Source of the DNA: a plasmid
Strand: one strand, 5' to 3'
Length of the DNA: 64,000 nt
Sequence record: NZ_CP123987.1
Below the pieces are notes generated by a model. That model saw nothing but the letters and a program-made list of their open reading frames with translations. It did not search any database and was not told where the DNA came from. The translations under genes were made by a program, and so were the position numbers. Position 1 is the first letter of the stretch. Every line of letters begins with the position of its first letter. Of the stretch, positions 50,930 through 63,190 are shown piece by piece.

Positions 50930-52645
50930 TTACTTCAAGTTATGGTTGGTAAATTTTGTTACGTTCCCAATACTTTGTCCATTAACAACGTTAGCTTTGA
51001 AACTGACGTTGTCACCACTTCTAAGCAAGTTAGCTTTGACAAAATCATCAGTATCGATGGTGTAAACAATTTGATTATCTTTGAGAGTAAACATTACTTT
51101 GTTTTTATTAGATACTATTGCTACTCTATCTACAGTTCCTGTAATCTGCTTCAGATTACTATTAGGTGTATTTGATGCTTTAGCTCCACTGTTTACTAAT
51201 GCTTGTCTAAAATCATCTAAGGCACTAATTGGGGAAGGACCTGTTCCGTAAATAGATTGGTCTTCAGCATCGAGATAATAATATCCTCTGATTGCGTGTG
51301 TTTTATCTAAAATAGTCATGATCCATGTTGGTCGTCCATCAACGTTATATAGGATAGGCATGTTAGCTGTCCATTGTTGAGCTTTGTAATTTTGGTTAGC
51401 GTTACTCTTTGCACCAGAACTATCCATGATTCCATTAGCTTTGTAATAAGTTAATTCACCTGTACGAGCATTAATCATGGAGTACCCTAAAGCGGAATCA
51501 GATTTAGTATTAGGGTTAGTAAAGTCTGTGAAATAGCTAATGGTTCCATTTTCATTGAATATTGAAGTTACGCCGTCTTCTGGGCCATTATTAGTTGGTT
51601 CTTCCATATCTGTTTTACCCAAGAAACGATTCCAAAATCCGTGCTTGTAACTACCATAATTACTGTTTATTTCTGCTGCAACATCTGAAGTGATACCTTC
51701 ATCAACAAATTTTGGCAAATTAGATAATTTGTATGTTTTAGTTTTTCCTGTAACAGCGTTCATAACAATGACTCTTAGTTTTTTGTAGTTAATTCTGTGA
51801 CTTAGGAATTCAGATTTATATACTGTTTCTACCCAATAAGGATTTCCATTATTGTCAATTTCTAGCTGTGCGCCGCCATCACCTAATTTCAACCATTGTG
51901 GATTATTTCGATATAGTTGTCTTTCGGCATCTCTTTTGAAATAGGCACTTGTAGTATATTTGTACGGTTTTTTGATAAATTTTGGTGTCGCATTTTGACT
52001 CGTTGCATCAATCATAAAATATCCAGGAATATTTTTTGCCTTCATCATCGCAAAGAATCCTTGGTATTCAACGGGGACAATATAGACTGCTTTACCATGA
52101 ATATATTGTGCTTGCACAGTTCCGGCAATTTTGTAGTACTGACTATTTGGTAAATCAGAAACTGCTTTTCTTACTCGATTCAAAACAGTTTTAGGTGCTA
52201 AGGCTACAGGAGTCTCACCACGTTTAAATGTTGGAGCTTGTTTGGAACTGACTTTTTTGACTGAAATTGAATTATAAGTTGGCTTAACTGATAGTATTGA
52301 ATATAGTTCACCGCCAACTGCTATCAAAAGTGTAATCATAACTACTGATAATCCAATTGAAAAAGATTTATTAACCCATAATTTTCCTCGGCGAATATCA
52401 TCATCAAAATTTCCAATAAATAGATTTAAAATTAAGAAAATTCCACCGAAAATGGCATTTCCTAGTAACAATGAGAGTAAGTTTCTCGATGGGAGTAAGA
52501 AATATACAAAAATAAAAATTAATAATATTTCTAGTAATAAAATACTTAATGATATTAATGTTTGCTTTTTATTTCTTAAAAATATCGACTTACATACAAA
52601 AATTATGATAGCTAAGAGACTGTACATTAAGGTCATAACTAACAT
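50930..52645 (-). CDS. membrane-anchored protein with a large extracytoplasmic domain
   Basis: 3-4 N-terminal TM helices and a ~430-aa hydrophilic domain; function unknown. Confidence 0.5.
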   Translation of the reverse strand: MLVMTLMYSLLAIIIFVCKSIFLRNKKQTLISLSILLLEILLIFIFVYFLLPSRNLLSLLLGNAIFGGIFLILNLFIGNFDDDIRRGKLWVNKSFSIGLSVVMITLLIAVGGELYSILSVKPTYNSISVKKVSSKQAPTFKRGETPVALAPKTVLNRVRKAVSDLPNSQYYKIAGTVQAQYIHGKAVYIVPVEYQGFFAMMKAKNIPGYFMIDATSQNATPKFIKKPYKYTTSAYFKRDAERQLYRNNPQWLKLGDGGAQLEIDNNGNPYWVETVYKSEFLSHRINYKKLRVIVMNAVTGKTKTYKLSNLPKFVDEGITSDVAAEINSNYGSYKHGFWNRFLGKTDMEEPTNNGPEDGVTSIFNENGTISYFTDFTNPNTKSDSALGYSMINARTGELTYYKANGIMDSSGAKSNANQNYKAQQWTANMPILYNVDGRPTWIMTILDKTHAIRGYYYLDAEDQSIYGTGPSPISALDDFRQALVNSGAKASNTPNSNLKQITGTVDRVAIVSNKNKVMFTLKDNQIVYTIDTDDFVKANLLRSGDNVSFKANVVNGQSIGNVTKFTNHNLK

Positions 52646-52799
52646 GATTTGACAACCCCTTTAATAAAAATTAGTTAATTAATTATATCATACTGTCAGT
52701 ATCTATATTGTTAAATGATCGAAAACGCAAACATTATACGTTGAAATATCATAAATAGTTTATAATTACATTAGGTAGCAAAGAAAGGTTGTGGAAACA

Positions 52800-53966
52800 A
52801 TGAATATAATCACCACAAATGAAAATAAGAAGATAGCAGATAAAATTTGGGATAAAAATGATATTAATTGGATACTTAGGAAGAATGGATTTAAAGCAGT
52901 GAAAGATGCAAAATTTGCAGACTGGAAATTAGATAGTATTAAAGTAAATGGACTAGATTTTTATGTATTAGCGCAAGAGGATCTGGCTACATATGCAATT
53001 TTTGATGAAGAAATGGCAAAATTTTCAATTTCAATTGTAGTAGATGCATTAGAGCAGATTGATATTATTCCACAACAACAAATGGTTTTATATGAAAATG
53101 CATTATTTAATGGCAATGTTATGAAGATCAAAACAAGAAAGAATGTTAAGGTGAACTTGTCTGATGATGACCTGGACTTTATTAGTAATTATCTTGATTC
53201 GCGTTTTTATACCCCAGGAATGTCGGAAAATGAAAAAATCGAGTGTTTCCTTGAGATAAGCGGATATTTATCTTTTCGCAACCAAATTGATGAAAATAAG
53301 CTAAATGATTATTATCAAATCAAACTTGGAAAAGCAAATAAAAAATACAGCTATGTTACATTGGAACGTAATTTTAGATACTTTGAAAATTGGGACAAGT
53401 ATGCAGATTTAAGTAAGGATGATGAAAAATACGAAAGAGTGAAGAGTAAACTTATAGAAAATAATAATAAGATGATTGATCAATATTTGAACTTTGTAAA
53501 ATCAGAAAAAAATTTCACAAGCATGCCTCCAATTAGTCAGCAAAAGGAAATATTGGAGGATTACCTAAACAAGTATCTCCTAAAAGACAAAATACAAACA
53601 GTTATAACAAATGCAGCTGAATTATATACTTATAAAATTAGTATTGGCGAAACTGGTATTACAGAGTATATCGCGATTATGACGGAATTATTTAATTTCT
53701 TGCAAAAAACTGGTGCGGTTAAGAAGAATGATGGTAAAAAAGTAAAAGATATACTGGAGGAATTAAGCATTATCACAGGTGATAACGAGGATCATTCAAT
53801 GGAAGATAGTTTACTTGATGCATTAAATGATTTAAGTGATGAAGAGCTAGATCTTTTGGGAGAAGTCATGTCTTCAATAGAAAGACCTGTCGATCCAGAA
53901 GTTATTTCAGATGATAGTCAAAATCTTGAAGTTCCATACATGAGACTTTTAAAAAGAGATGAATAG
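52800..53966 (+). CDS. hypothetical acidic protein
   Basis: ~389 aa; no recognisable motifs; the terminator-like hairpin at 54093-54139 lies ~127 bp downstream, across an unannotated gap. Confidence 0.45.
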   Translation: MNIITTNENKKIADKIWDKNDINWILRKNGFKAVKDAKFADWKLDSIKVNGLDFYVLAQEDLATYAIFDEEMAKFSISIVVDALEQIDIIPQQQMVLYENALFNGNVMKIKTRKNVKVNLSDDDLDFISNYLDSRFYTPGMSENEKIECFLEISGYLSFRNQIDENKLNDYYQIKLGKANKKYSYVTLERNFRYFENWDKYADLSKDDEKYERVKSKLIENNNKMIDQYLNFVKSEKNFTSMPPISQQKEILEDYLNKYLLKDKIQTVITNAAELYTYKISIGETGITEYIAIMTELFNFLQKTGAVKKNDGKKVKDILEELSIITGDNEDHSMEDSLLDALNDLSDEELDLLGEVMSSIERPVDPEVISDDSQNLEVPYMRLLKRDE

Positions 53967-54092
53967 TCTATAATTAAATATAAAAAAATGGAAGGCAAAA
54001 ACAGCCCTCCATTTCTTTAAAAAGAATTTTTAACAAAAATAAATGGCAGTGGTTTCCAGTCATTTAAATTGCTAGTTATTTTTGAACATAAA

Positions 54093-54139
54093 TTAAGGCA
54101 CTTTGTTTTACTCTAACTGAGTAGAAATAAAGTGCCTTT
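54093..54139 (+). terminator. rho-independent terminator
   Basis: AAGGCACTTTG…AAAGTGCCTTTT hairpin followed by a T-run. Confidence 0.5.
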
Positions 54140-54185
54140 TGAGTTATTAAAATAAGTAAAATGACAAATACAACTATGTATATTC

Positions 54186-55112
54186 CTACAATTCTTTCAA
54201 ATGTTTTAAAATTTTCCGATTATCTTTAGTTTCAAGTTCTTTAATGATATGTAGATATGTTTCTTGAGTAGTCGTAACATTAGCGTGTCCCAATCTTCGT
54301 GATACACTCAAGACTGATACACCTTGGAATAATAGTAGCGATGCATGTGTATGCCTTAGACCATGTATGGAAATTGTAGGAATGTTGGCATGTCGACATA
54401 ATGTTGCTAGTCTGCTGTTGACGGTAGAGTTAAATATTTTTTGATTCTGATTAACGAAAATAGGTTGGTCAGGGTCTTTTTCTTTCGTCAATTTCTTGAA
54501 AGCTTTTAAAGTACTATCATCAACGAAGATTTTCCGATTAGAGCTTTTATTTTTGGTGGGTTGAAAGCCATAATCTTTGAACTTGTAATTCCAAGATTTA
54601 TTAATGTTTATTTGTTGATTTTTATAGTCAAAGTCAGCAGGTGTTAGGGCTAACGCTTCAGCAAATCGCAATCCAGTTTTGCTAATCAAATAGATGAACC
54701 AATCCCAATTTACTTCAGCAGGTAGGTTCAATTCATATAATAAAGCTTGTAATTCATTCATATTCAAGAATTTCTTCTTTTTCTTTCTTTTTTGAATTCC
54801 TTTAATAATAGCTTTTCTTGTAGGGTTAATTCTAATAATTCCATCTTCATATGCATCTACAAGACATGGCTTTAAATGATGATGAAAGTCGAGTGTTGTT
54901 TCACGTTCATGATTTTCAGCAAATTTATTTAAAAGTAATTGATAACTCTTACGATCAAGTTGGTGTAAATGTAAATCAGGGCAAAGTTCTTTAACATGTT
55001 TGTGAGCGAGCTCGTATTTTACTAGAGTCGCATGACGTACTGCATCTTTCTTATATAGCTCAATCCACTCTTTATAGTATTTATGGAACAATTTTGTACT
55101 TTTTCTTGGCAC
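54186..55112 (-). CDS. tyrosine site-specific recombinase (phage-integrase family)
   Basis: C-terminal R…HxxR…Y catalytic-box context (…HGLRHTHASLL…ETYLHI…); adjacent to hsdS. Confidence 0.8.
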   Translation of the reverse strand: MPRKSTKLFHKYYKEWIELYKKDAVRHATLVKYELAHKHVKELCPDLHLHQLDRKSYQLLLNKFAENHERETTLDFHHHLKPCLVDAYEDGIIRINPTRKAIIKGIQKRKKKKKFLNMNELQALLYELNLPAEVNWDWFIYLISKTGLRFAEALALTPADFDYKNQQININKSWNYKFKDYGFQPTKNKSSNRKIFVDDSTLKAFKKLTKEKDPDQPIFVNQNQKIFNSTVNSRLATLCRHANIPTISIHGLRHTHASLLLFQGVSVLSVSRRLGHANVTTTQETYLHIIKELETKDNRKILKHLKEL

Positions 55113-55322
55113 TAGCCATCACCTCTCTAATTATTTAGCTGAATTAAATATATCAGTAATCTATTTTTGATTGAATATTGTGGACCTCCAAAATTATTTT
55201 TAGGTAATATGATGAAATTACCAAAAAAATTGTTGAAATTTTAGAGAAGTGAGATATAATAAAATTGTAATAGGGGTTAATTACAACATTAATATAGATA
55301 GAAATAAGGAGTTGAAAATTTT

Positions 55323-55880
55323 ATGAAGTTAAACGAATTGGTAAAAATCGAAAGTGGAATTAATTCAGTTCGTGTAAAGGATCAAAATTATACGCTATAT
55401 ACCATAGAAGACGTCAATTATGACTTGGGGCATGGTGAGGATTATCAACACGATAAGGCTAGTGGTAAAAGTATTACAGCAAGGGGAGATATTGTGATAA
55501 ATACTGTAAGTAATCTAGCAAGTGTTGTTCATTCTAGAAATGCTGGTAAGATGCTTAATCAAATTTTTCTTCGTTTAAATATCCTTGATGAGAATACATT
55601 AGACCCTTGGTATTTATGCTATCTATTAAATAAGTCCGAATACATTAGGTACCAAGAAGCAGCCATTATGGATGGATCTGTTATTAGAAAGCTAACTAAA
55701 GCTAATCTTGAAGATTTAGAGATTAATCTGCCGGGAGTAGTTGACCAAAAGAAGATGGGGGAAGCTTACAAAGAAATTATGAAAAAGTATACATTAGCTA
55801 TGGAGAAAGCGGAGTTAGAAAAAGATCTGTACTTACAAATGTTAGGGGAAAAAGATTTAAACAACAGAGAGGCGGTTTAA
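55323..55880 (+). CDS. hsdS: type I R-M specificity subunit, half-size (single TRD)
   Basis: 185 aa; one target-recognition domain plus a conserved C-terminal coiled-coil spacer (…LPGVVDQKKMGEAYKEIMKKYTLAMEK…). Confidence 0.7.
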   Translation: MKLNELVKIESGINSVRVKDQNYTLYTIEDVNYDLGHGEDYQHDKASGKSITARGDIVINTVSNLASVVHSRNAGKMLNQIFLRLNILDENTLDPWYLCYLLNKSEYIRYQEAAIMDGSVIRKLTKANLEDLEINLPGVVDQKKMGEAYKEIMKKYTLAMEKAELEKDLYLQMLGEKDLNNREAV

Positions 55881-55881
55881 T

Positions 55882-57273
55882 ATGGATAAGGATTTAGAAG
55901 AAAGATTAGCAGTTAAAGATAGCTATATCACTATTCATGACTTTTATGTGTTAATGGCATTTTATCAATCAATTTCACAAAAAGTTTTACGAAAATTTGA
56001 TAAAGATGGCAGCATTTTAGAAGTACAAAAAAAATATGAAGAAAGTAGGGAGACTGTTCAGGATGCTCAATTCGTAATAGCGCCACAAGATACATATTAT
56101 CATCATTACCAAATGTATAAGGCCAATAAATTTGAATATGTTGAACTCGTAAAATCTCTATATAATATAGAAGAAAAAAATCCAAAATTAAAAAATATCT
56201 TCCAAGATGTTAGCGGAAGTACTTCAAGTTTACCGAGTGAAACTGCTTTTGAAAAGATAGATTCACGTAATGAAGTAAGTTTTGAAGAAAATTTAGAAAT
56301 AATTAAGCGAAGCAGTGGCGCTAGGGATAATTACGATTATACTTCGAAAAATATCCGTAAGTTGATTACTAAATTAGTTGGAAGTAAAAAAGAAGGAGTA
56401 TCAATTTATGATCCAGCTTTGGGAACAGCGAGTTTACTGTTAGGTATAAATCGAGATGCACTTAAAGAAAATAAATATTATGGACAAGAAATCAATACTC
56501 AAGTGATAAAAATAGCCATTATGAACGCAATAGTTAATGATGTAGATGATGATAAATTTGAATTTAAGAATGAAAATACATTGGCTAATAACTGGGAATT
56601 TGGCAAGGTTGATATAGTAGTGTCTGATCCACCTATAAATATGAAATGGAATGTTGATAGAAATTTAAGTCAAGATAGACGTTACCGAGATTATGGTGAG
56701 ATGCCTAACAAAGCTGATTGGGGATTCATTTTAGATGGAATAGATAAATTATCAGACAATGGCATGATGGTTGTGTCAGTTGTTCAAGGTACGCTGTTTA
56801 GAGGAGCCAAAGAATACAATATTAGACGTAAACTTCTAGAAGATGGAAAGATTAGGGCGGTAATCCAGTTGCCAGGGAATACAAAAATTTCAACTACAAT
56901 CGCAACTTGCTTATTAGTGCTTAGAAAATCATCAGAAGATAAAGATGTCTTCTTTATTAATGCAAGCCAAGAGTATGAGAAGAAAGGCTTGGAAAATATT
57001 CTAACAGAAGCCAATGTCGATAAAATTGTAGATATTTTTAATGAAAAGAAAGAAGAAAAAGGATTCTCACATGTAGCGAGCTATGAAGAAATTGAGAAAA
57101 ATGATTTTAACCTATCAGTAGCACGTTATGTAAATCAGTATAAGTTTAAAGAAAAATTAGATTATCAAGAAGAAATAAAAAATCTTGAAAAGTTAGATGA
57201 AAAACTAAGTCAAACTGATGCGACATTGAAGAATTTGATGGGTGATTTAGGTTTGATGGAGATTAATAACTAG
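55882..57273 (+). CDS. hsdM: type I HsdM-like N6-adenine methyltransferase with atypical catalytic motifs
   Basis: HsdM architecture with the C-terminal FNLSVARYV motif. Motif I reads IYDPALGTASLLLG (canonical DPACGSGGFL) and motif IV reads VVSDPPI (canonical NPPF/Y). Confidence 0.7.
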   Translation: MDKDLEERLAVKDSYITIHDFYVLMAFYQSISQKVLRKFDKDGSILEVQKKYEESRETVQDAQFVIAPQDTYYHHYQMYKANKFEYVELVKSLYNIEEKNPKLKNIFQDVSGSTSSLPSETAFEKIDSRNEVSFEENLEIIKRSSGARDNYDYTSKNIRKLITKLVGSKKEGVSIYDPALGTASLLLGINRDALKENKYYGQEINTQVIKIAIMNAIVNDVDDDKFEFKNENTLANNWEFGKVDIVVSDPPINMKWNVDRNLSQDRRYRDYGEMPNKADWGFILDGIDKLSDNGMMVVSVVQGTLFRGAKEYNIRRKLLEDGKIRAVIQLPGNTKISTTIATCLLVLRKSSEDKDVFFINASQEYEKKGLENILTEANVDKIVDIFNEKKEEKGFSHVASYEEIEKNDFNLSVARYVNQYKFKEKLDYQEEIKNLEKLDEKLSQTDATLKNLMGDLGLMEINN

Positions 57274-57291
57274 AAATTAAGGGGGATAAAA

Positions 57292-57534
57292 ATGATTAAA
57301 CTAGAAAAAATGATCAAAAAATTAGAGTTAATACTGGCAGGGGTTATGTTACCCACAATGATAATCTTTGTCGTTCTTGAATTGAATAGGTTAATGACAG
57401 GAACTGAAACAGACTATGGGTATTTGGCAATAACAATGATAATGACACTACTACTAGGAACTTTAGAAGTCCAGTTTTCAATGAAAGAAGAAATTAAAGA
57501 GTTAAAAATGGAACTCAAAAATATTGATAAGTAA
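57292..57534 (+). CDS. small membrane protein
   Basis: 80 aa, 2 TM helices; inside the operon. Confidence 0.4.
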   Translation: MIKLEKMIKKLELILAGVMLPTMIIFVVLELNRLMTGTETDYGYLAITMIMTLLLGTLEVQFSMKEEIKELKMELKNIDK

Positions 57535-57685
57535 AATTTCCAAATTTGCCAATTTAGATATAGGAGAAATTAGAAAATTTGTGCAAATAGTAGATTTCTT
57601 AGATTAAAAACTAAATTTTTGCATAAATTAGAAAATTGGTCCTGTGTCTAGAATGGAAAATTGGAGAAAAAGGAGAAAAAAGAAG

Positions 57686-59650
57686 ATGAAGTTATTTAAT
57701 AAAAGTCATTCTAAAAATAGTGAGTGGTATTTTCCAGGTGGTAAAGACTTACAAATGGAATCTGGATCTAATGCGAGTTTAGAAATGTTTAAGGATAATC
57801 CTTTAGACTCTTTAGCTAGAGAAATATGTCAAAATTCGTTAGATGCTGGGATAGAGGGTAGTAATAAGCCTGTTCGAGTAGAGTTTACAAGTTTCAAGGT
57901 TAAAGCTGAAAATATTCCAGGATATCTGGAGCTAAAATATGAAGTTATAAATAAGGCGATGAAACAATGGCCTAATGAGCAAAAAACAATGTCTATGTTA
58001 AGAAAAATGGACAGGATTTTGAAAAATAAATTTGTTAATGTTTTAAAAATTAGTGATTATAACACTACTGGTTTACGAAAAGAAAATTGGAAATCATTAA
58101 TTGAACAAGTTGGTTCATCTGTAAAGAAAGATTCATCATCAGCCGGATCATTTGGTATTGGTAAAGGGGCACCATTTGCTGTTAGTGATTTACGAATGGT
58201 ACTGTATAGTACTTTGGCTGATGAAGGTATTAAGTCCATTGGTGTAATGAAGTTTGTATCTTATAAAGATAAGCTTAATGGGAAAACTATAATTACCCAA
58301 GGTACAGGATATTATGGGGAAAATGGGAGTAAGAAACCAATTTCAAAAGATTTTGGATTAGGAGGAGAAATATCTAGAACTGAAAAGGGAACAGATATCT
58401 ATATTATTGGTTTTAATCAAGAATTGATGGAGAACTGGACTAAAGAAATAACATATTCTTTAGCAAATAACTTCTTATTTTCTTTCTATACTAATAAATT
58501 AGAAGTAGTTATTGATAATAAATATATGCTTGACTACAGTAAGATGAACAAGATTATTGAGGAAATTCGTAATGATAAGAAATTACTAAGGAAATATGAG
58601 TATTTACCAGGTTATTATGATGTTTTACAAGATGAAGATCATAAAGAATTTAATTTAACTGGATTCAAAGAATATGGTATTAAAGATGGGGAAGCAATAC
58701 TTTATACCTCAAATAAGGGCGATGTAAATCGTAGAGTATTAATGACAAGAAATGCAGGTATGAAGATTAAAGATCTAAATAGAATCAGTTCCATTATTAA
58801 ATTTTCCGGAATATTCTATGCTCATGGAAAAAATATCAACGGAATACTTAAACAACTAGAAAATCCTAATCATAATGATTGATCCAAGGATAGATCTGAA
58901 ACGCCTAAAAAAGCTGGCAGATTCTTAAAAGGTATGAATAGATTTATAAAAGAAACTATCAAAGATACATATACTGAAAAAGTAGCTGATGAAGTTGATG
59001 CATATGGGGTTAGTGATTTCCTCCCAGAGGATATAAATTCGATAAGACTGTCAAATAAAAAAGTCAAAGATAAAGGTCATAAAAAAGTAGCTATTGAGAT
59101 TGAAAAAATAAATACAAAGTCTAAAGTAGCTAGAGTTAGAGAAAATAATCATATTACTGGCGGCGATGATAAAGGTGTTACTAAAGGTGGAGTAGGTCAA
59201 GGAGATAGTTTTGGTACAGCTTATGATGGAAGAGGACATAGAGGTGGATCTAGTACAGGAAATAACTTTGGTTATGGCGATAGACCTGGGGAAAATGGAC
59301 CTAATAACAATGATGATATGTTTATAAAAAATAGAAATAGTCAAAAAAAGATAACCAATGTGAAATACAGATGTATAGAAGTTGATCATCAAAGTGGAAT
59401 GTATAGGCTGATGGTAAAGCCTGATAAGAGTTTAAGCAATGTGCGTATTGATTTAGATGTTATTGGTGATTCAGGTAAAAAAGATACAGTTCAGATAACA
59501 AAGGCGACCTATCGAGGAAAACAATTAAATATAGGATATTCAAATGTATATATCCAATCTTTACTTGCAGGATCTTGGCAGCCTATCATGATAAAACTTA
59601 ATGGAAATACACGGTTGAAATTGGAGGTAGAAATTTATGCGAATATCTGA
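57686..59650 (+). pseudogene. MORC-like GHKL ATPase (HATPase_c_3-type) with an in-frame TGA
   Basis: Bergerat-fold N box LAREICQNSLDAG and G-box SAGSFGIGKGAPFAVSD. TGA at 58880-58882 lies in frame between the 412-aa and 238-aa ORFs, so a single reading frame covers the whole length. Confidence 0.65.
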
Positions 59651-62406
59651 CAGTATTTATCCTTATCCAGTATTATCAGTAGATGATGAAGATTATATTC
59701 AAGATTCAGAATTTGATGTCGAGTTTACTAGTGTTACAGCAACACCATTTAAAAATGCAATTGTAAAATGTAGATTTATTTTACAGTGCGCCCGGCATGG
59801 TCGATAACTAGGTGGTGAAAGTCCGCTGTGGGCCGTAGTAGTAGGAACCACGAGCCAAGGGCAAGGGTGTCCATCGTGAGGTGGAATCTGAAGGAAGCTC
59901 GATGAGCAAACCACTGCACTGATGAACAAAAATCGACTGTAAGGCCAAGGGGAGAGGATAAGGTTGCTGTACAAACTGAAGTCCAATACTACTCGAAACA
60001 AACCTTGGTAAAGTCGGCAGTGACATGGTGGGAAAGTTATCGTCCTTACCCGGGGAGGTCTGGTCTGCAAGTTTCCGACAAGAGGAATACCTATAATTCC
60101 ACAGAAACAAGCGTTTCAGTGATGGAACGTTGAGCAGAGCAGAAGTCAGCAGAGGTCATAGTAGCCTAAATTAGGCGAAGGACTGAACGACAATAACTCA
60201 TAAATTATATTGGAGGTGAAGTTGGTGCGACAATCGCAGAAAACAGAAATACAAGCTGGCCGCTTGTCGAGGATAGATTTGGAAAATCAAAAGTACACAA
60301 GGGTGCGTAGCACCAATTTTGGTGAAAATAAAGGTATGAGTGTCACTATTCAAGACGAAGTCTTAGACCGCAACAACCTAAATAAGGCATACTTGCGTGT
60401 CAAAAGTAACAGAGGAGCAGCTGGCATTGATGAAATGACAGTTGACGAATTATTCCAATACCTTAGAGAAAATAAAGAGGAACTTACCACAAGTTTGCGA
60501 GAAGGAAGTTATAAACCACTTCCAGTTAAACGTGTAGAAATTCCTAAGCTAAATGGGGGAACGAGAAAGTTAGGAATACCGACAGTAATTGACCGTATGG
60601 TCCAACAAGCAGTAGTTCAAGTACTAACACCCATATTTGAAGAAATTTTCTCTGAAAACAGTTTTGGTTTTCGACCAAACAGAGGAGCTCAAGATGCGAT
60701 AGATAAGGTAATTAGTTATTATAATCAAGGATATAAACGAGTAGTAGATTTGGATCTTAAATCCTACTTCGATAATGTTAATCATGATTTAATGATAAAA
60801 TACTTACAGCAATATATAGATGATGAATGGACGTTAAAACTCATACGTAAATTTCTAACAAGTGGAATATTAGACAATGGGTTATTCGTCAAAAGTGAGA
60901 AAGGAACTCCACAAGGAGGGCCTTTATCACCACTATTAGCCAACATCTATCTTAATGAGCTAGATAAGGAATTAACTAAACGTGGACATCGTTTCGTTAG
61001 ATACGCAGATGACTGTAATATCTACGTTAAAAGTCAGCGAGCAGGTGAAAGGGTAATGCGTAGCATTACGAAGTTTCTAGAAAAACAACTAAAAGTTAAG
61101 GTAAACACAGATAAAACACGAGTAGGCAGTCCTATAAAACTGAAATTCTTAGGTTTCTCTTTGGGAGTAGATAATAAAGGAGGATATGCTCGACCATCAA
61201 AAGAATCTCAGAAACGCGTGAGACAAGCACTTAAAATGACAACCAAGCGAAATAGAGGAATTTCTCTGAACGATATGTTCAAAGAAATATACCAGAAAAT
61301 GCGTGGTTGGTTACAGTATTACTCAATAGGGAGAATGACTACTTTTATCAGACGTCTTGACCAATGGCTAAGGTCAAGAATAAGGCAATATATCTGGAAA
61401 CAATGGAAGAAACCTAAAACAAGATTTGTTAACTTGAAGAAGTTAGGGTTGTCACAACAAGATGCATATACATTTGCCATGACTCGTAAGGGTTACTGGC
61501 GAACTGCACATAGTAAGACATTAACGTATACCCTAACTAATAGAAAACTGGAGCAACTAGGACTAATAAATATGTCCAAAGTACTCCAGTCAATACAAAG
61601 TGATTAAATTGTCGAACCGCCGTATACGGATCCGTACGTACGGTGGTGTGAGAGGTCGATAATTGAACTAATCAATTATCTCCTACTCGATTGATCGCAA
61701 TTTAGAAAGATTAATAAGCTTAGGTAAAGCAGGATTGTATTTACGTGTAGAAAATAGTCTCACTGCATATCGTAAACTATACGCATTAGAACCTGGGAAA
61801 TATACGTTTGAATTAGAAATAGATCCTAAATATATGAGAAAAAAAGTAGAGGTAACAGGCTTACTTTTAGCAAAACAAAATATCACAGATTTTATTAGTG
61901 ATACTATCAATACTGACCTATATGGAAAAGATTATGTATTTCCTGATTTAAATACTGGGGACCCATTAGCTGTTGCATTTACTACTAATGTTGTTGTAAA
62001 TGACGAAGATAGTTTTAAAAGTGTATCTTCAATTATGAAGGTAGCTAAATCAAAAAAGGAGTATATGGTAGTAGATCCAGATGGAGAAATCATATACGTA
62101 TATTTGCCAGAAACTTTATATGAACAATATATTAGATACCAATCAGTACCAGATATAGCTTTATCAATAGTAATATTACCGGCACTTATACAGGTTTTAA
62201 GTTATATGGTATTAAACCGAGGTAATGATATTGATGAACAAAAATGGTATATGGTAATTGAGAAGAAAATAAGGAGTTTAGATAAGGATATTAATGATTT
62301 ATTTAACGAAAAAATTTCACCACTAGAGTTAGCACAAATGATCTTAGAAAATCCAGTAGAAAGATCATTCAATGAAATAAAGGGGATTGTTGGAATTGAA
62401 GATTAA
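59637..62406 (+). CDS. hypothetical protein encoded by two exons interrupted by a group II intron (exon 1 59637-59785, exon 2 61692-62406)
   Basis: Exon 1 (50 codons, RBS GGAGGTAG) ends at the GTGCG intron 5' end. The in-frame open region upstream of the 223-aa ORF extends back to ~61681. Joining 59785 to 61692 keeps the frame, giving a ~288-aa product. Confidence 0.5.
59786..61691 (+). mobile_element. group II intron (~1.9 kb) with an ORF in domain IV
   Basis: 5' GTGCGCCCGG…; structured G/C-rich RNA 59786-60200 that contrasts with the AT-rich surroundings; IEP; domain V-like hairpin GAACCGCCGTATACGG…CGTACGTACGGTGG at ~61614-61650; domain VI-like stem and an …AT end at 61691. Confidence 0.75.
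60222..61607 (+). CDS. ltrA: group II intron reverse transcriptase/maturase (no endonuclease domain)
   Basis: RT domains 0-7 including FVRYADDCNIY (YADD) and maturase domain X; a GGAGG RBS before TTG/GTG at 60222/60225. Confidence 0.85.
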   Translation: MVRQSQKTEIQAGRLSRIDLENQKYTRVRSTNFGENKGMSVTIQDEVLDRNNLNKAYLRVKSNRGAAGIDEMTVDELFQYLRENKEELTTSLREGSYKPLPVKRVEIPKLNGGTRKLGIPTVIDRMVQQAVVQVLTPIFEEIFSENSFGFRPNRGAQDAIDKVISYYNQGYKRVVDLDLKSYFDNVNHDLMIKYLQQYIDDEWTLKLIRKFLTSGILDNGLFVKSEKGTPQGGPLSPLLANIYLNELDKELTKRGHRFVRYADDCNIYVKSQRAGERVMRSITKFLEKQLKVKVNTDKTRVGSPIKLKFLGFSLGVDNKGGYARPSKESQKRVRQALKMTTKRNRGISLNDMFKEIYQKMRGWLQYYSIGRMTTFIRRLDQWLRSRIRQYIWKQWKKPKTRFVNLKKLGLSQQDAYTFAMTRKGYWRTAHSKTLTYTLTNRKLEQLGLINMSKVLQSIQSD

Positions 62407-63190
62407 GGCGAAAACTTGCGATGAGAATTTTTTAGAGGAAATAAAACGAAATTTTGATACTAAATACATAGATTTATATCGTAATTTCGATAAGAAGGGT
62501 ATTCAAGAATTATTCGATAATGAGTTAGTGTATGATATAGAACATGAATTTGAATACTTAGAATTGTTTGATCCTAAATCTTTTAGTGATTTATTTACAA
62601 ATAATATAAAAAATACTTATGAGGCGTTGAAATTTTTAACACCTGCCCAAGCATCTAGAGAAGAATTTTGGTTTACTATGATTAATACTGTATATTTAGA
62701 TTATTTATTGGATTATTTAAAAACGGTATCGGATCGTAAAGATTTTGATCAAAAGATTAAAAATAGTATTTTTTATAATAGCTCAATTACTAAGGCACAA
62801 ACAATTCAAAGAATATCTCGATATTGGTGGTTAGGTTATAGGACATATGATGAAAAAAATATTTCAAATCCATATTGGCTGACAGAATATTTCTTTGAAC
62901 GTGATGGTTCCAGTAAAATTATTGCATTCTTTTCTAGTAATTTGACTAACAATAAAGATATTGCATTAGGAATAATTGAAGGTATCAAAAATAGAAATGA
63001 TAAGATAGTAAATAATAGATGGGCATATTTAATTATGAATAAATATTTTAATGCTATGGGTGGCGTTAGAATCATAGATATTATGACTAGGGAAGAAATT
63101 AAAAAAGAAACAATGAAATATATTGATTATATAGTAGAGAACCCAGAACTATTATCATTAGAAGAGAGAAAGGGAATAATAAAGGGTTAG
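62390..63190 (+). CDS. hypothetical protein (operon member, unknown function)
   Basis: ~266 aa; overlaps the upstream gene end; no known motifs recognised; start uncertain. Confidence 0.45.
   Translation: MELKIKAKTCDENFLEEIKRNFDTKYIDLYRNFDKKGIQELFDNELVYDIEHEFEYLELFDPKSFSDLFTNNIKNTYEALKFLTPAQASREEFWFTMINTVYLDYLLDYLKTVSDRKDFDQKIKNSIFYNSSITKAQTIQRISRYWWLGYRTYDEKNISNPYWLTEYFFERDGSSKIIAFFSSNLTNNKDIALGIIEGIKNRNDKIVNNRWAYLIMNKYFNAMGGVRIIDIMTREEIKKETMKYIDYIVENPELLSLEERKGIIKG

Follow-up and report, generated by a model that had tools for sequence, protein, structure and literature searches.

Within a 64,000-nucleotide stretch of a Ligilactobacillus salivarius repA-type megaplasmid (sequence record NZ_CP123987.1; the whole stretch is hereafter called the window), a full-length open reading frame (ORF) at positions 55882-57273 on the plus strand encodes a 463-aa HsdM-like protein, referred to here as M463. 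This protein belongs, as the M subunit, to a self-contained Type I-like module without HsdR, which is made up of a half-size specificity subunit (half-S), M463, and an 80-aa membrane protein (TM80). The cofactor-binding motif I of M463 is intact in sequence and of the EcoKI/EcoR124I type, and its catalytic motif IV is eroded, the stacking aromatic residue being gone in the aligned sequences of the whole clade. By analogy, the module is best described as a Gram-positive counterpart of the R-less HsdMS decoy architecture of Ronin in which the catalytic motif has eroded. It may serve as a non-methylating, Ronin-like decoy or guard whose targets are DNA-mimic anti-restriction proteins and whose output is probably TM80, a reading to which we would assign a probability of about 0.4.

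That M463 is a real HsdM-type protein is evident from its fold. Residues 153-424 match PF02384 (N6_Mtase) with 235.9 bits against a gathering cut-off of 20.4 (E 8.9e-70), and the protein is matched by the PADLOC MTase_I model (E 7e-66). Among solved HsdM chains, phmmer finds 3LKD (E 4e-59) and EcoR124I (E 2e-44). M463 does fall below the cut-off of the NCBIfam hsdM equivalog TIGR00497 (194.8 versus 242.75 bits), covering only profile positions 200-510, and it has no Pfam match to PF12161 (HsdM_N), yet the phmmer alignment to 3LKD spans residues 40-453, and the N-terminal domain is shortened. A preliminary description of this gene, made from the window alone, had proposed structure prediction as a check, and the AlphaFold2 model (mean per-residue confidence, pLDDT, 83.6; predicted template modelling score, pTM, 0.80) gives the whole HsdM fold, superposing over its full length on 3LKD with a template modelling (TM) score of 0.71. 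The best structural matches of the model include the M1 and M2 subunits of PacII, and EcoR124I in its Ocr-bound and ArdA-bound states.

The same preliminary description had called both the S-adenosylmethionine (SAM) binding motif and the catalytic motif degenerate, and the two cases turn out differently. The alignment it had suggested places both quoted peptides at the true motif I and motif IV positions, with the solved HsdM chains as reference. Motif I of M463, DPALGTASLL (56410-56439, plus strand; residues 177-186), forms an EcoKI-type SAM-binding loop, with 'siYDPALGTASLLL' aligned by phmmer to 'kiYDPAAGSGSLLL' of EcoR124I and to 'tlYDATMGSGSLLL' of 3LKD. The Asp, the Pro and the first Gly are all kept, and the sole departure from GSGSLL is a Gly to Ala change at the third glycine position. 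EcoKI itself, with the motif I sequence VVQDPAAGTAGFLI (DPAAGTAGFL; E. coli K-12 hsdM), has Ala at this very position, as do 20 of the 114 relatives of M463 that carry a canonical NPP[YF] motif IV, and M463 fits the pattern D-P-x-x-G-[ST]-[GA]-x-[FL]-L. A degenerate SAM loop is therefore rejected on the alignments to EcoR124I and 3LKD, on the EcoKI sequence, and on the frequency of Ala among canonical relatives; active EcoKI and EcoR124I have the same form of the motif, and the 'consensus' DPACG(S/T)GGFL against which it had been judged is the form of one subfamily only. Elsewhere in the pocket, E203 (the acid of motif II) and F306 (the Phe of motif VIII) are kept, whereas motif X reads DYTS in place of the usual F/Y-Y-T-P, a deviation that had previously been missed.

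In the case of motif IV, the reported loss of the aromatic residue holds. The motif reads DPPI (56626-56637, plus strand; residues 249-252), with 'divvSDPPINmKW' of M463 aligned by phmmer to 'daivSNPPYSvKW' and 'dgvlmNPPYSaKW' of solved HsdM chains, such that Ile stands in place of the aromatic residue. Among the 147 nearest 50%-identity cluster representatives of M463, the fourth position of the motif is Tyr in 81, Phe in 61, Leu in three, and Lys and Ile in one each; that is, 142 (97%) keep Tyr or Phe and five are non-aromatic. Close alleles of M463 (92-96% identical) have DPPI or DPPM. A second clade on the L. salivarius chromosome, consisting of 471-aa proteins that are ~51-52% identical to M463, has DMPL, with the first Pro also lost, together with the motif I sequence DPAVGTANLL. 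Motif IV thus differs at two of four residues between the two L. salivarius paralogues, and interchanges Ile and Met between alleles that are 93% identical; among ordinary HsdMs, even those sharing 50% identity or less, it is an invariant NPP[YF]. Stacking on the flipped base is the task of the aromatic residue in NPP(Y/F/W) (PMC3874165), and EcoKI loses its activity when N266 or F269 is changed (PMC2647291).

Erosion of motif IV is not accompanied by decay of the genes. Nei-Gojobori estimates of dN/dS (the ratio of nonsynonymous to synonymous substitution rates) among six plasmid alleles, with dS between 0.09 and 0.43, are 0.05-0.15 for M463, 0.04-0.15 for half-S, and 0.02-0.09 for TM80, the lowest of the three. 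All three genes of the module are under strong purifying selection, and therefore functional. Between the plasmid module and its chromosomal paralogue, dS is ~1.5 and dN/dS ~0.22. Specificity subunits are usually hypervariable, but the order of conservation is here the opposite, with half-S 70% identical between the paralogues and M only ~51-52%. The drift of motif IV, taken together with the conservation of half-S, points to relaxed constraint on catalysis specifically. In light of this, the earlier suggestion that M463 is an inactive or functionally diverged methyltransferase is a reasonable one, as the aromatic residue is missing clade-wide (Ile, Met or Leu) under purifying selection and as the N266 and F269 changes in EcoKI are inactivating; the loss of activity itself is inferred from sequence.

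PLSDB contains 29 L. salivarius megaplasmids that have the half-S and M463 segment, with nucleotide identities of 92-100%; pMP118 of strain UCC118 is one of them, and the identical 463-aa protein is encoded on pHN3 of strain CECT 5713 (CP002037/NC_017499). Both paralogues occur together in the type strain DSM 20555. In a profile search of 1.84 billion representatives, the two L. salivarius clusters scored 957 and 620 bits, with the next match at 283 bits, and a scan of genome contigs for relatives of the clade outside the species returned only L. salivarius and one 3.7-kb contig of a metagenome-assembled genome. No homologues of half-S were found outside L. salivarius. The chromosomal paralogue lies directly upstream of a canonical, phase-variable Type I RM system, in the order half-S (188 aa), M with DMPL, a canonical HsdM, a phase-variable HsdS region with a recombinase, and HsdR (L001-L004 and L019).

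The genes of the plasmid module are tightly packed. The half-S gene (55323-55880, plus strand; 185 aa) encodes one target-recognition domain and a C-terminal helix, is matched by Pfam Methylase_S (E 1.1e-5) and by PADLOC Specificity_I (E 1.4e-14) with half of the profiles covered, and its stop codon lies 1 nucleotide ahead of the M463 start codon. TM80 (57292-57534, plus strand) starts 18 nucleotides past the M463 stop, is preceded by a AAGGGGGA ribosome-binding site (RBS), and has two hydrophobic helices and a charged C-terminal tail in its hydropathy profile; it is a candidate effector. The module was compared over 13 plasmid-type loci, all of which have the recombinase described below, half-S and M463, and the ORFs are intact in all 13 loci and in the 29 plasmids. 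TM80 is found in 12 of the 13 loci, at 95-100% identity. No hsdR was seen, whether at the window locus or at the 13 plasmid-type loci, and none of the latter has another hsdM within 10 kb. TM80 has no family match in Pfam, PADLOC, NCBIfam or PHROGs, and homology to the Ronin toxin RonA or to any known family, considered as a possibility, was not found by sequence. In two loci the TM80 gene is altered: in L012 (11411-11572) by a 26-aa in-frame deletion with which one hydrophobic helix is gone, and in CECT 5713 (L011, 11426-11659) by stop codons near the 5' end, with a downstream start codon remaining.

The module marks one edge of a defence island that varies among L. salivarius megaplasmids, and adjoins a tyrosine recombinase. 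The XerC/D-like recombinase (54186-55112, minus strand; 308 aa; PF00589, E 1.3e-23, and NCBIfam Xer-type matches) is divergent from the module and is its conserved left neighbour, at 94-100% identity, in all 13 loci. The cargo on the 3' side varies. Seven loci have the PDC-M33 genes with an MmeI-like enzyme and a helicase; three, including those of UCC118 and CECT 5713, have a Type III restriction-modification (RM) system with three tandem Mod genes; and the remaining cargoes are found in one locus each, namely an MmeI-like enzyme with a helicase and a GIY-YIG nuclease, a helix-turn-helix gene with BrxA/B/C of a BREX system, and another helicase. PDC-M33 is thus absent from six of the 13 module-bearing loci. 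In CECT 5713, half-S and M463 are 100% identical to those of the window, while the cargo is the Type III RM system and the recombinase is only 94% identical, which implies recombination breakpoints at the module edges. The region from 57535 onward is a cargo-swapping defence hotspot (L005, L006, L011, L013-L015, L017).

Of the known systems, Ronin provides the closest parallel. Ronin combines an hsdS-hsdM pair, again lacking hsdR, with RonA, a membrane toxin of 61 aa; an integrase is often found upstream, and the system is associated with BREX or with Type I or Type IV RM systems. Expression of Ocr, ArdA or Aop1 leads to death of the cell, and F287G in the NPPF motif, a substitution used as a catalytic-dead allele, has no effect on the system (bioRxiv 10.1101/2023.04.06.535777). 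The E. coli D5 Ronin locus, reached via the supplementary table of that study, comprises an integrase remnant, ronA, a 200-aa half-size hsdS, and a 493-aa hsdM, with BREX further downstream. The L. salivarius module resembles this arrangement in its linked hsdS and hsdM without hsdR, in the half-size S (185 aa here versus 200 aa in D5), in the tightly linked small hydrophobic protein, in the adjoining integrase (13 of 13 loci), and in the BREX- or RM-type cargo beside it. The function of Ronin needs no methyl transfer, and the eroded motif IV of M463 is consistent with a catalysis-independent role of this kind. The module differs in residing on a Gram-positive megaplasmid and in being known from sequence alone. 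M463 is no closer to the Ronin HsdM than to ordinary HsdMs, so that the likeness is architectural rather than one of orthology; the S subunits share 30% identity over 61 aa.

Other systems are similar in some respects. With the Type I M2S core (EcoKI, EcoR124I, 3LKD) M463 shares the three-domain HsdM fold, PF02384, an EcoKI-type motif I, and an adjacent S gene, but the module lacks the motif IV aromatic residue and hsdR, its S is half-size and does not diversify, and M463 scores below TIGR00497 without an HsdM_N match. In two-methyltransferase Type I systems of the PacII family, M1 has NPPF and M2 NPPY, and an HsdM killed by an APPA substitution still supports its partner (PMC5100572). Two HsdM paralogues per system are likewise found in the chromosomal L. 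salivarius locus and in two of the lineages described below (P0219 and P0132), PacII M1 and M2 are among the best structural matches of M463, and a dead subunit may keep a structural role. However, both PacII subunits have the aromatic residue, methylate, and share one full-size S, whereas the plasmid module has its own half-S with no second M or R nearby; the chromosomal paralogue does adjoin hsdM-hsdS-hsdR, but it too has its own half-S, unlike the PacII type. A more distant parallel is METTL14, a non-catalytic partner with an eroded EPPL motif, and ciliate MTA9, likewise a pseudo-methyltransferase partner (PMC7544214). In these proteins also an eroded motif IV is kept in an amino-methyltransferase fold for binding or scaffolding, but they are eukaryotic, beta-class, and form obligate heterodimers with an active paralogue, whereas the L. 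salivarius module encodes no active partner.

If the module does function as Ronin does, two M463 and two half-S subunits would assemble into an M2S2 clamp able to bind DNA or its protein mimics but no longer to methylate adenine. Such binding has a precedent in the EcoKI M2S complex, where Ocr is clamped in the DNA groove (PMC2647291). The clamp would act as a decoy or guard for ArdA- or Ocr-like proteins aimed at the RM and BREX systems encoded alongside, and binding of an inhibitor would release or activate TM80, leading to arrest of the infected cell; where TM80 is absent, the clamp might just titrate the inhibitor. In a decoy role catalysis would be dispensable, so that motif IV could drift while the rest of M463 is conserved, and the S subunit would have no call to diversify. 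The module is persistently found beside RM and BREX cargo.

Several observations weigh against this interpretation. The residues that bind SAM are conserved, and a pure decoy does not obviously need them, while the loss of methylation is deduced from one residue class. The Ronin HsdM keeps NPPF where M463 has DPPI, and M463 is 33% identical to it as opposed to 37-40% to ordinary HsdMs. RonA (61 aa, one helix, encoded upstream) and TM80 (80 aa, two helices, encoded downstream of M) are unrelated in sequence, and the integrase is Xer-like here but of the DUF4102 type in Ronin. In addition, TM80 is not present in one locus (L005, 11398-12121, on a BREX-linked contig of 2.7x coverage), and no convincing small membrane ORF was found beside the other altered-motif HsdMs described below or beside the chromosomal paralogue.

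Of the rival explanations, one is that M463 is after all an active, solitary Type I-like methyltransferase, whereby M2(half-S)2 methylates adenine within a fixed palindromic bipartite site, for self-marking of the plasmid or for epigenetic regulation, with Ile, Met or Leu and the motif VIII Phe being enough to hold the flipped base. The conservation of motif I, the motif II acid, the motif IV Asp and second Pro, and the motif VIII Phe is in keeping with this, as are the strong purifying selection, an S specificity fixed as in an orphan regulatory methyltransferase, and the RefSeq annotation of M463 as 'N-6 DNA methylase'. We nevertheless regard it as somewhat unlikely, given that 97% of the nearest relatives keep Tyr or Phe, that the aromatic residue stacks on the flipped base (PMC3874165) and the EcoKI N266 and F269 changes abolish activity (PMC2647291), that F287G could serve as a catalytic-dead allele in Ronin (bioRxiv 10.1101/2023.04.06.535777), and that the residue is not fixed even within the clade (Ile, Met, Leu), where the paralogue with DMPL lacks the first Pro as well and motif X reads DYTS. 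The module might instead be a non-catalytic recognition module whose nuclease or methyltransferase is encoded elsewhere, such that it recruits the chromosomal HsdR, or pairs with a canonical HsdM and half-S, and has one active methylation site or none; in one version, it would be a reader of a modified or unusual base, similar to Type IV systems. On the L. salivarius chromosome and in four of the lineages below (P0219, P0132, P0198, P0254), the altered M is indeed part of, or adjoins, a complete Type I operon that has a single HsdR, the canonical hsdS beside the paralogue is also half-size in L001 and L003 (177 aa), and both the APPA-dead subunit (PMC5100572) and METTL14 with its EPPL motif (PMC7544214) illustrate how an inactive subunit can serve a partner. 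This explanation is improbable for the plasmid module, as none of the 13 megaplasmid loci has an hsdR or a second hsdM within 10 kb, as the module is also found beside Type III RM, BREX and MmeI-like cargo, and as a complex that recruits HsdR but cannot methylate its recognition site would be toxic to its own cell, unless the mark that it reads is foreign.

A complex that binds or titrates without any toxin, acting as a sponge for DNA-mimic inhibitors or as a regulator of the integrase or the defence island, with TM80 unrelated to it, is also rather hard to favour. The fixed S specificity, the location, beside a recombinase, on the border of a recombining island, and the absence of TM80 from L005 and from other altered-motif lineages would suit such a role, but 12 of the 13 loci retain TM80, its dN/dS is the lowest in the module, and it starts 18 nucleotides past the M463 stop behind a strong RBS, and no candidate operator repeats were found in 52600-57700. 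The preliminary description had instead suggested that an inactive methyltransferase acts as a scaffold or sensor with the neighbouring 'GHKL ATPase', PDC-M33A. The two are adjacent in the window and in six other loci, and PDC-M33A has a weak sacsin/HATPase-like NCBIfam match, the one piece of evidence for its GHKL fold. However, loci that lack PDC-M33 still have the module, there with Type III RM, BREX, MmeI-like or other cargo; PDC-M33A carries an in-frame TGA at codon 413 (58880-58882) in the window, and is broken further in L007, L009 and L010 while half-S, M463 and TM80 stay whole; and the PADLOC PDC-M33 models cover three genes, A, B and C, with no methyltransferase among them. The module is independent of the GHKL-like genes and their adjacency incidental, a functional link being rejected on the cargo comparison (13 loci, 29 plasmids) and the internal stop codon, and we consider this partnership very improbable. 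Least credible of all is the idea that a Type I RM system is here decaying into a pseudogene: hsdR is missing, S is half-size and motif IV is eroded, but dN/dS values of 0.05-0.15 over dS of up to 0.43, ORFs that are intact in 13 loci and 29 plasmids, and a paralogue pair kept at a dS of ~1.5 with dN/dS of ~0.22 refute the pseudogene reading.

M463 is not unique in having an altered motif IV. Among the 147 nearest representatives, 33 are without a canonical [NDS]PP[FYWH] motif, and the genomic context was looked up for seven such lineages on metagenome contigs (L020, L022-L027, L030-L033). The lineage P0219 (DIPK) has the order half-S (205 aa), M, a 179-aa protein without assigned function, HsdR, PD-T7-3, a canonical HsdM, and a full HsdS. 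P0132 (DIPF) has an integrase on the opposite strand (on one contig), half-S (186 aa), M, HsdR, a canonical HsdM, and a full HsdS. In P0265 (TPPI), half-S (206 aa) and M are followed by Type III Mod and Res, and in P0161 (NPPL) a 273-aa protein without assigned function precedes half-S (200 aa) and M, with no R within 8.4 kb. P0203 (TPPF) has half-S (204 aa) and M, the M of P0198 (HLPL) adjoins HsdR, a canonical HsdM and HsdS, and in P0254 (HPPL) M is followed by HsdR on a short contig. A half-size S of 186-206 aa therefore precedes M in five of the seven, most adjoin a complete Type I or Type III RM system, and the aromatic residue is lost in five of at least seven altered-motif lineages. The nearest relatives of each lineage are canonical NPP[YF] proteins and not each other, which indicates that the motif IV changes arose independently. 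The repeated pairing with half-S next to complete RM systems, of Type I in P0219 and P0132 and of Type III in P0265, counts in favour of the decoy reading. In the P0219 system, the PD-T7-3 homologue (L020, 10620-11945; PADLOC E 1.4e-119) lies between hsdR and the canonical hsdM.

Taken together, the HsdMs with eroded motifs, nearly always accompanied by a half-size HsdS, may, though we hold this tentatively and think it rather doubtful, constitute a convergent and so far undescribed class of pseudo-methyltransferases on RM, BREX and other defence islands, where they would serve as decoys or guards that sense DNA-mimic anti-restriction proteins, or as readers of foreign base modification that feed a Type I HsdR. 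The clearest case within such a class would be the L. salivarius megaplasmid operon, which has an 80-aa membrane effector of its own. A further, larger group of HsdM-like representatives retains PP[FY] but has the catalytic Asn or Asp replaced by V, I, T, H, Q, R, E, Y or A (P0127, P0131, P0133, P0139, P0141, P0142, P0157, P0163, P0181, P0182, P0197, P0204, P0215, P0221, P0238, P0239, P0244, P0245 and P0266).

A decoy role without methylation would mean that decoy immunity against anti-restriction proteins, known through Ronin from the Enterobacteria, reaches to the lactobacilli as well. The signature of a non-aromatic motif IV, a half-size S and no HsdR could then be used to find modules that are now annotated as an ordinary 'N-6 DNA methylase'. 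Such genes would not be expected to yield a methylation motif, a point of practical weight when methylomes are assigned and when restriction barriers are to be overcome in probiotic L. salivarius strains; nothing usable in the way of L. salivarius methylome or REBASE-type data was found in the literature searched. Should M463 prove active, on the other hand, it would be mechanistically interesting as a rare case of an amino-methyltransferase that does without the stacking aromatic residue.

Downstream of the module in the window lie three PDC-M33 genes. PDC-M33A (57644-59650, plus strand) is matched by PADLOC in two halves (E 5.6e-118 and 7.4e-28), on either side of its premature TGA; the DSM 20555 copy (L017) is unbroken over 668 codons. 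PDC-M33B, on the same strand, begins at about 59636, is broken at 59785/59786 and resumes at 61735-62406, and is followed by PDC-M33C (DUF6339; 62387-63190, plus strand). The interruption of PDC-M33B is due to the insertion of a 1,906-bp group II intron (59786-61691; Rfam RF02001, RF01998 and RF00029), which encodes a reverse transcriptase/maturase (60210-61607) and is absent from the type strain. The boundaries of the intron were set against the intronless L017 allele, and the PDC-M33B exons flank it. No paper on 'PDC-M33' was found in the literature.

Upstream of the module, a promoter-like site with the arrangement TTGAAA-16-TATAAT (55233-55260, plus strand) precedes the half-S gene, and with 11 of 12 matching positions is the best in the region; it represents a consensus match only, as 11 such sites were found versus 12.9 expected in shuffled sequences. 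A phase-variable hsdS shufflon operated by the adjacent recombinase was considered and set aside, as a search of 52600-57700 showed neither inverted repeats nor silent hsdS copies. Left of the recombinase lie two conserved genes, one encoding a 571-aa protein with N-terminal hydrophobic segments (50930-52645, minus strand) and the other a 391-aa protein (52791-53966, plus strand), neither of which has a match in Pfam, PADLOC, NCBIfam or PHROGs. In strain S35, the gene for the 391-aa protein is swapped for toxin-antitoxin pairs.

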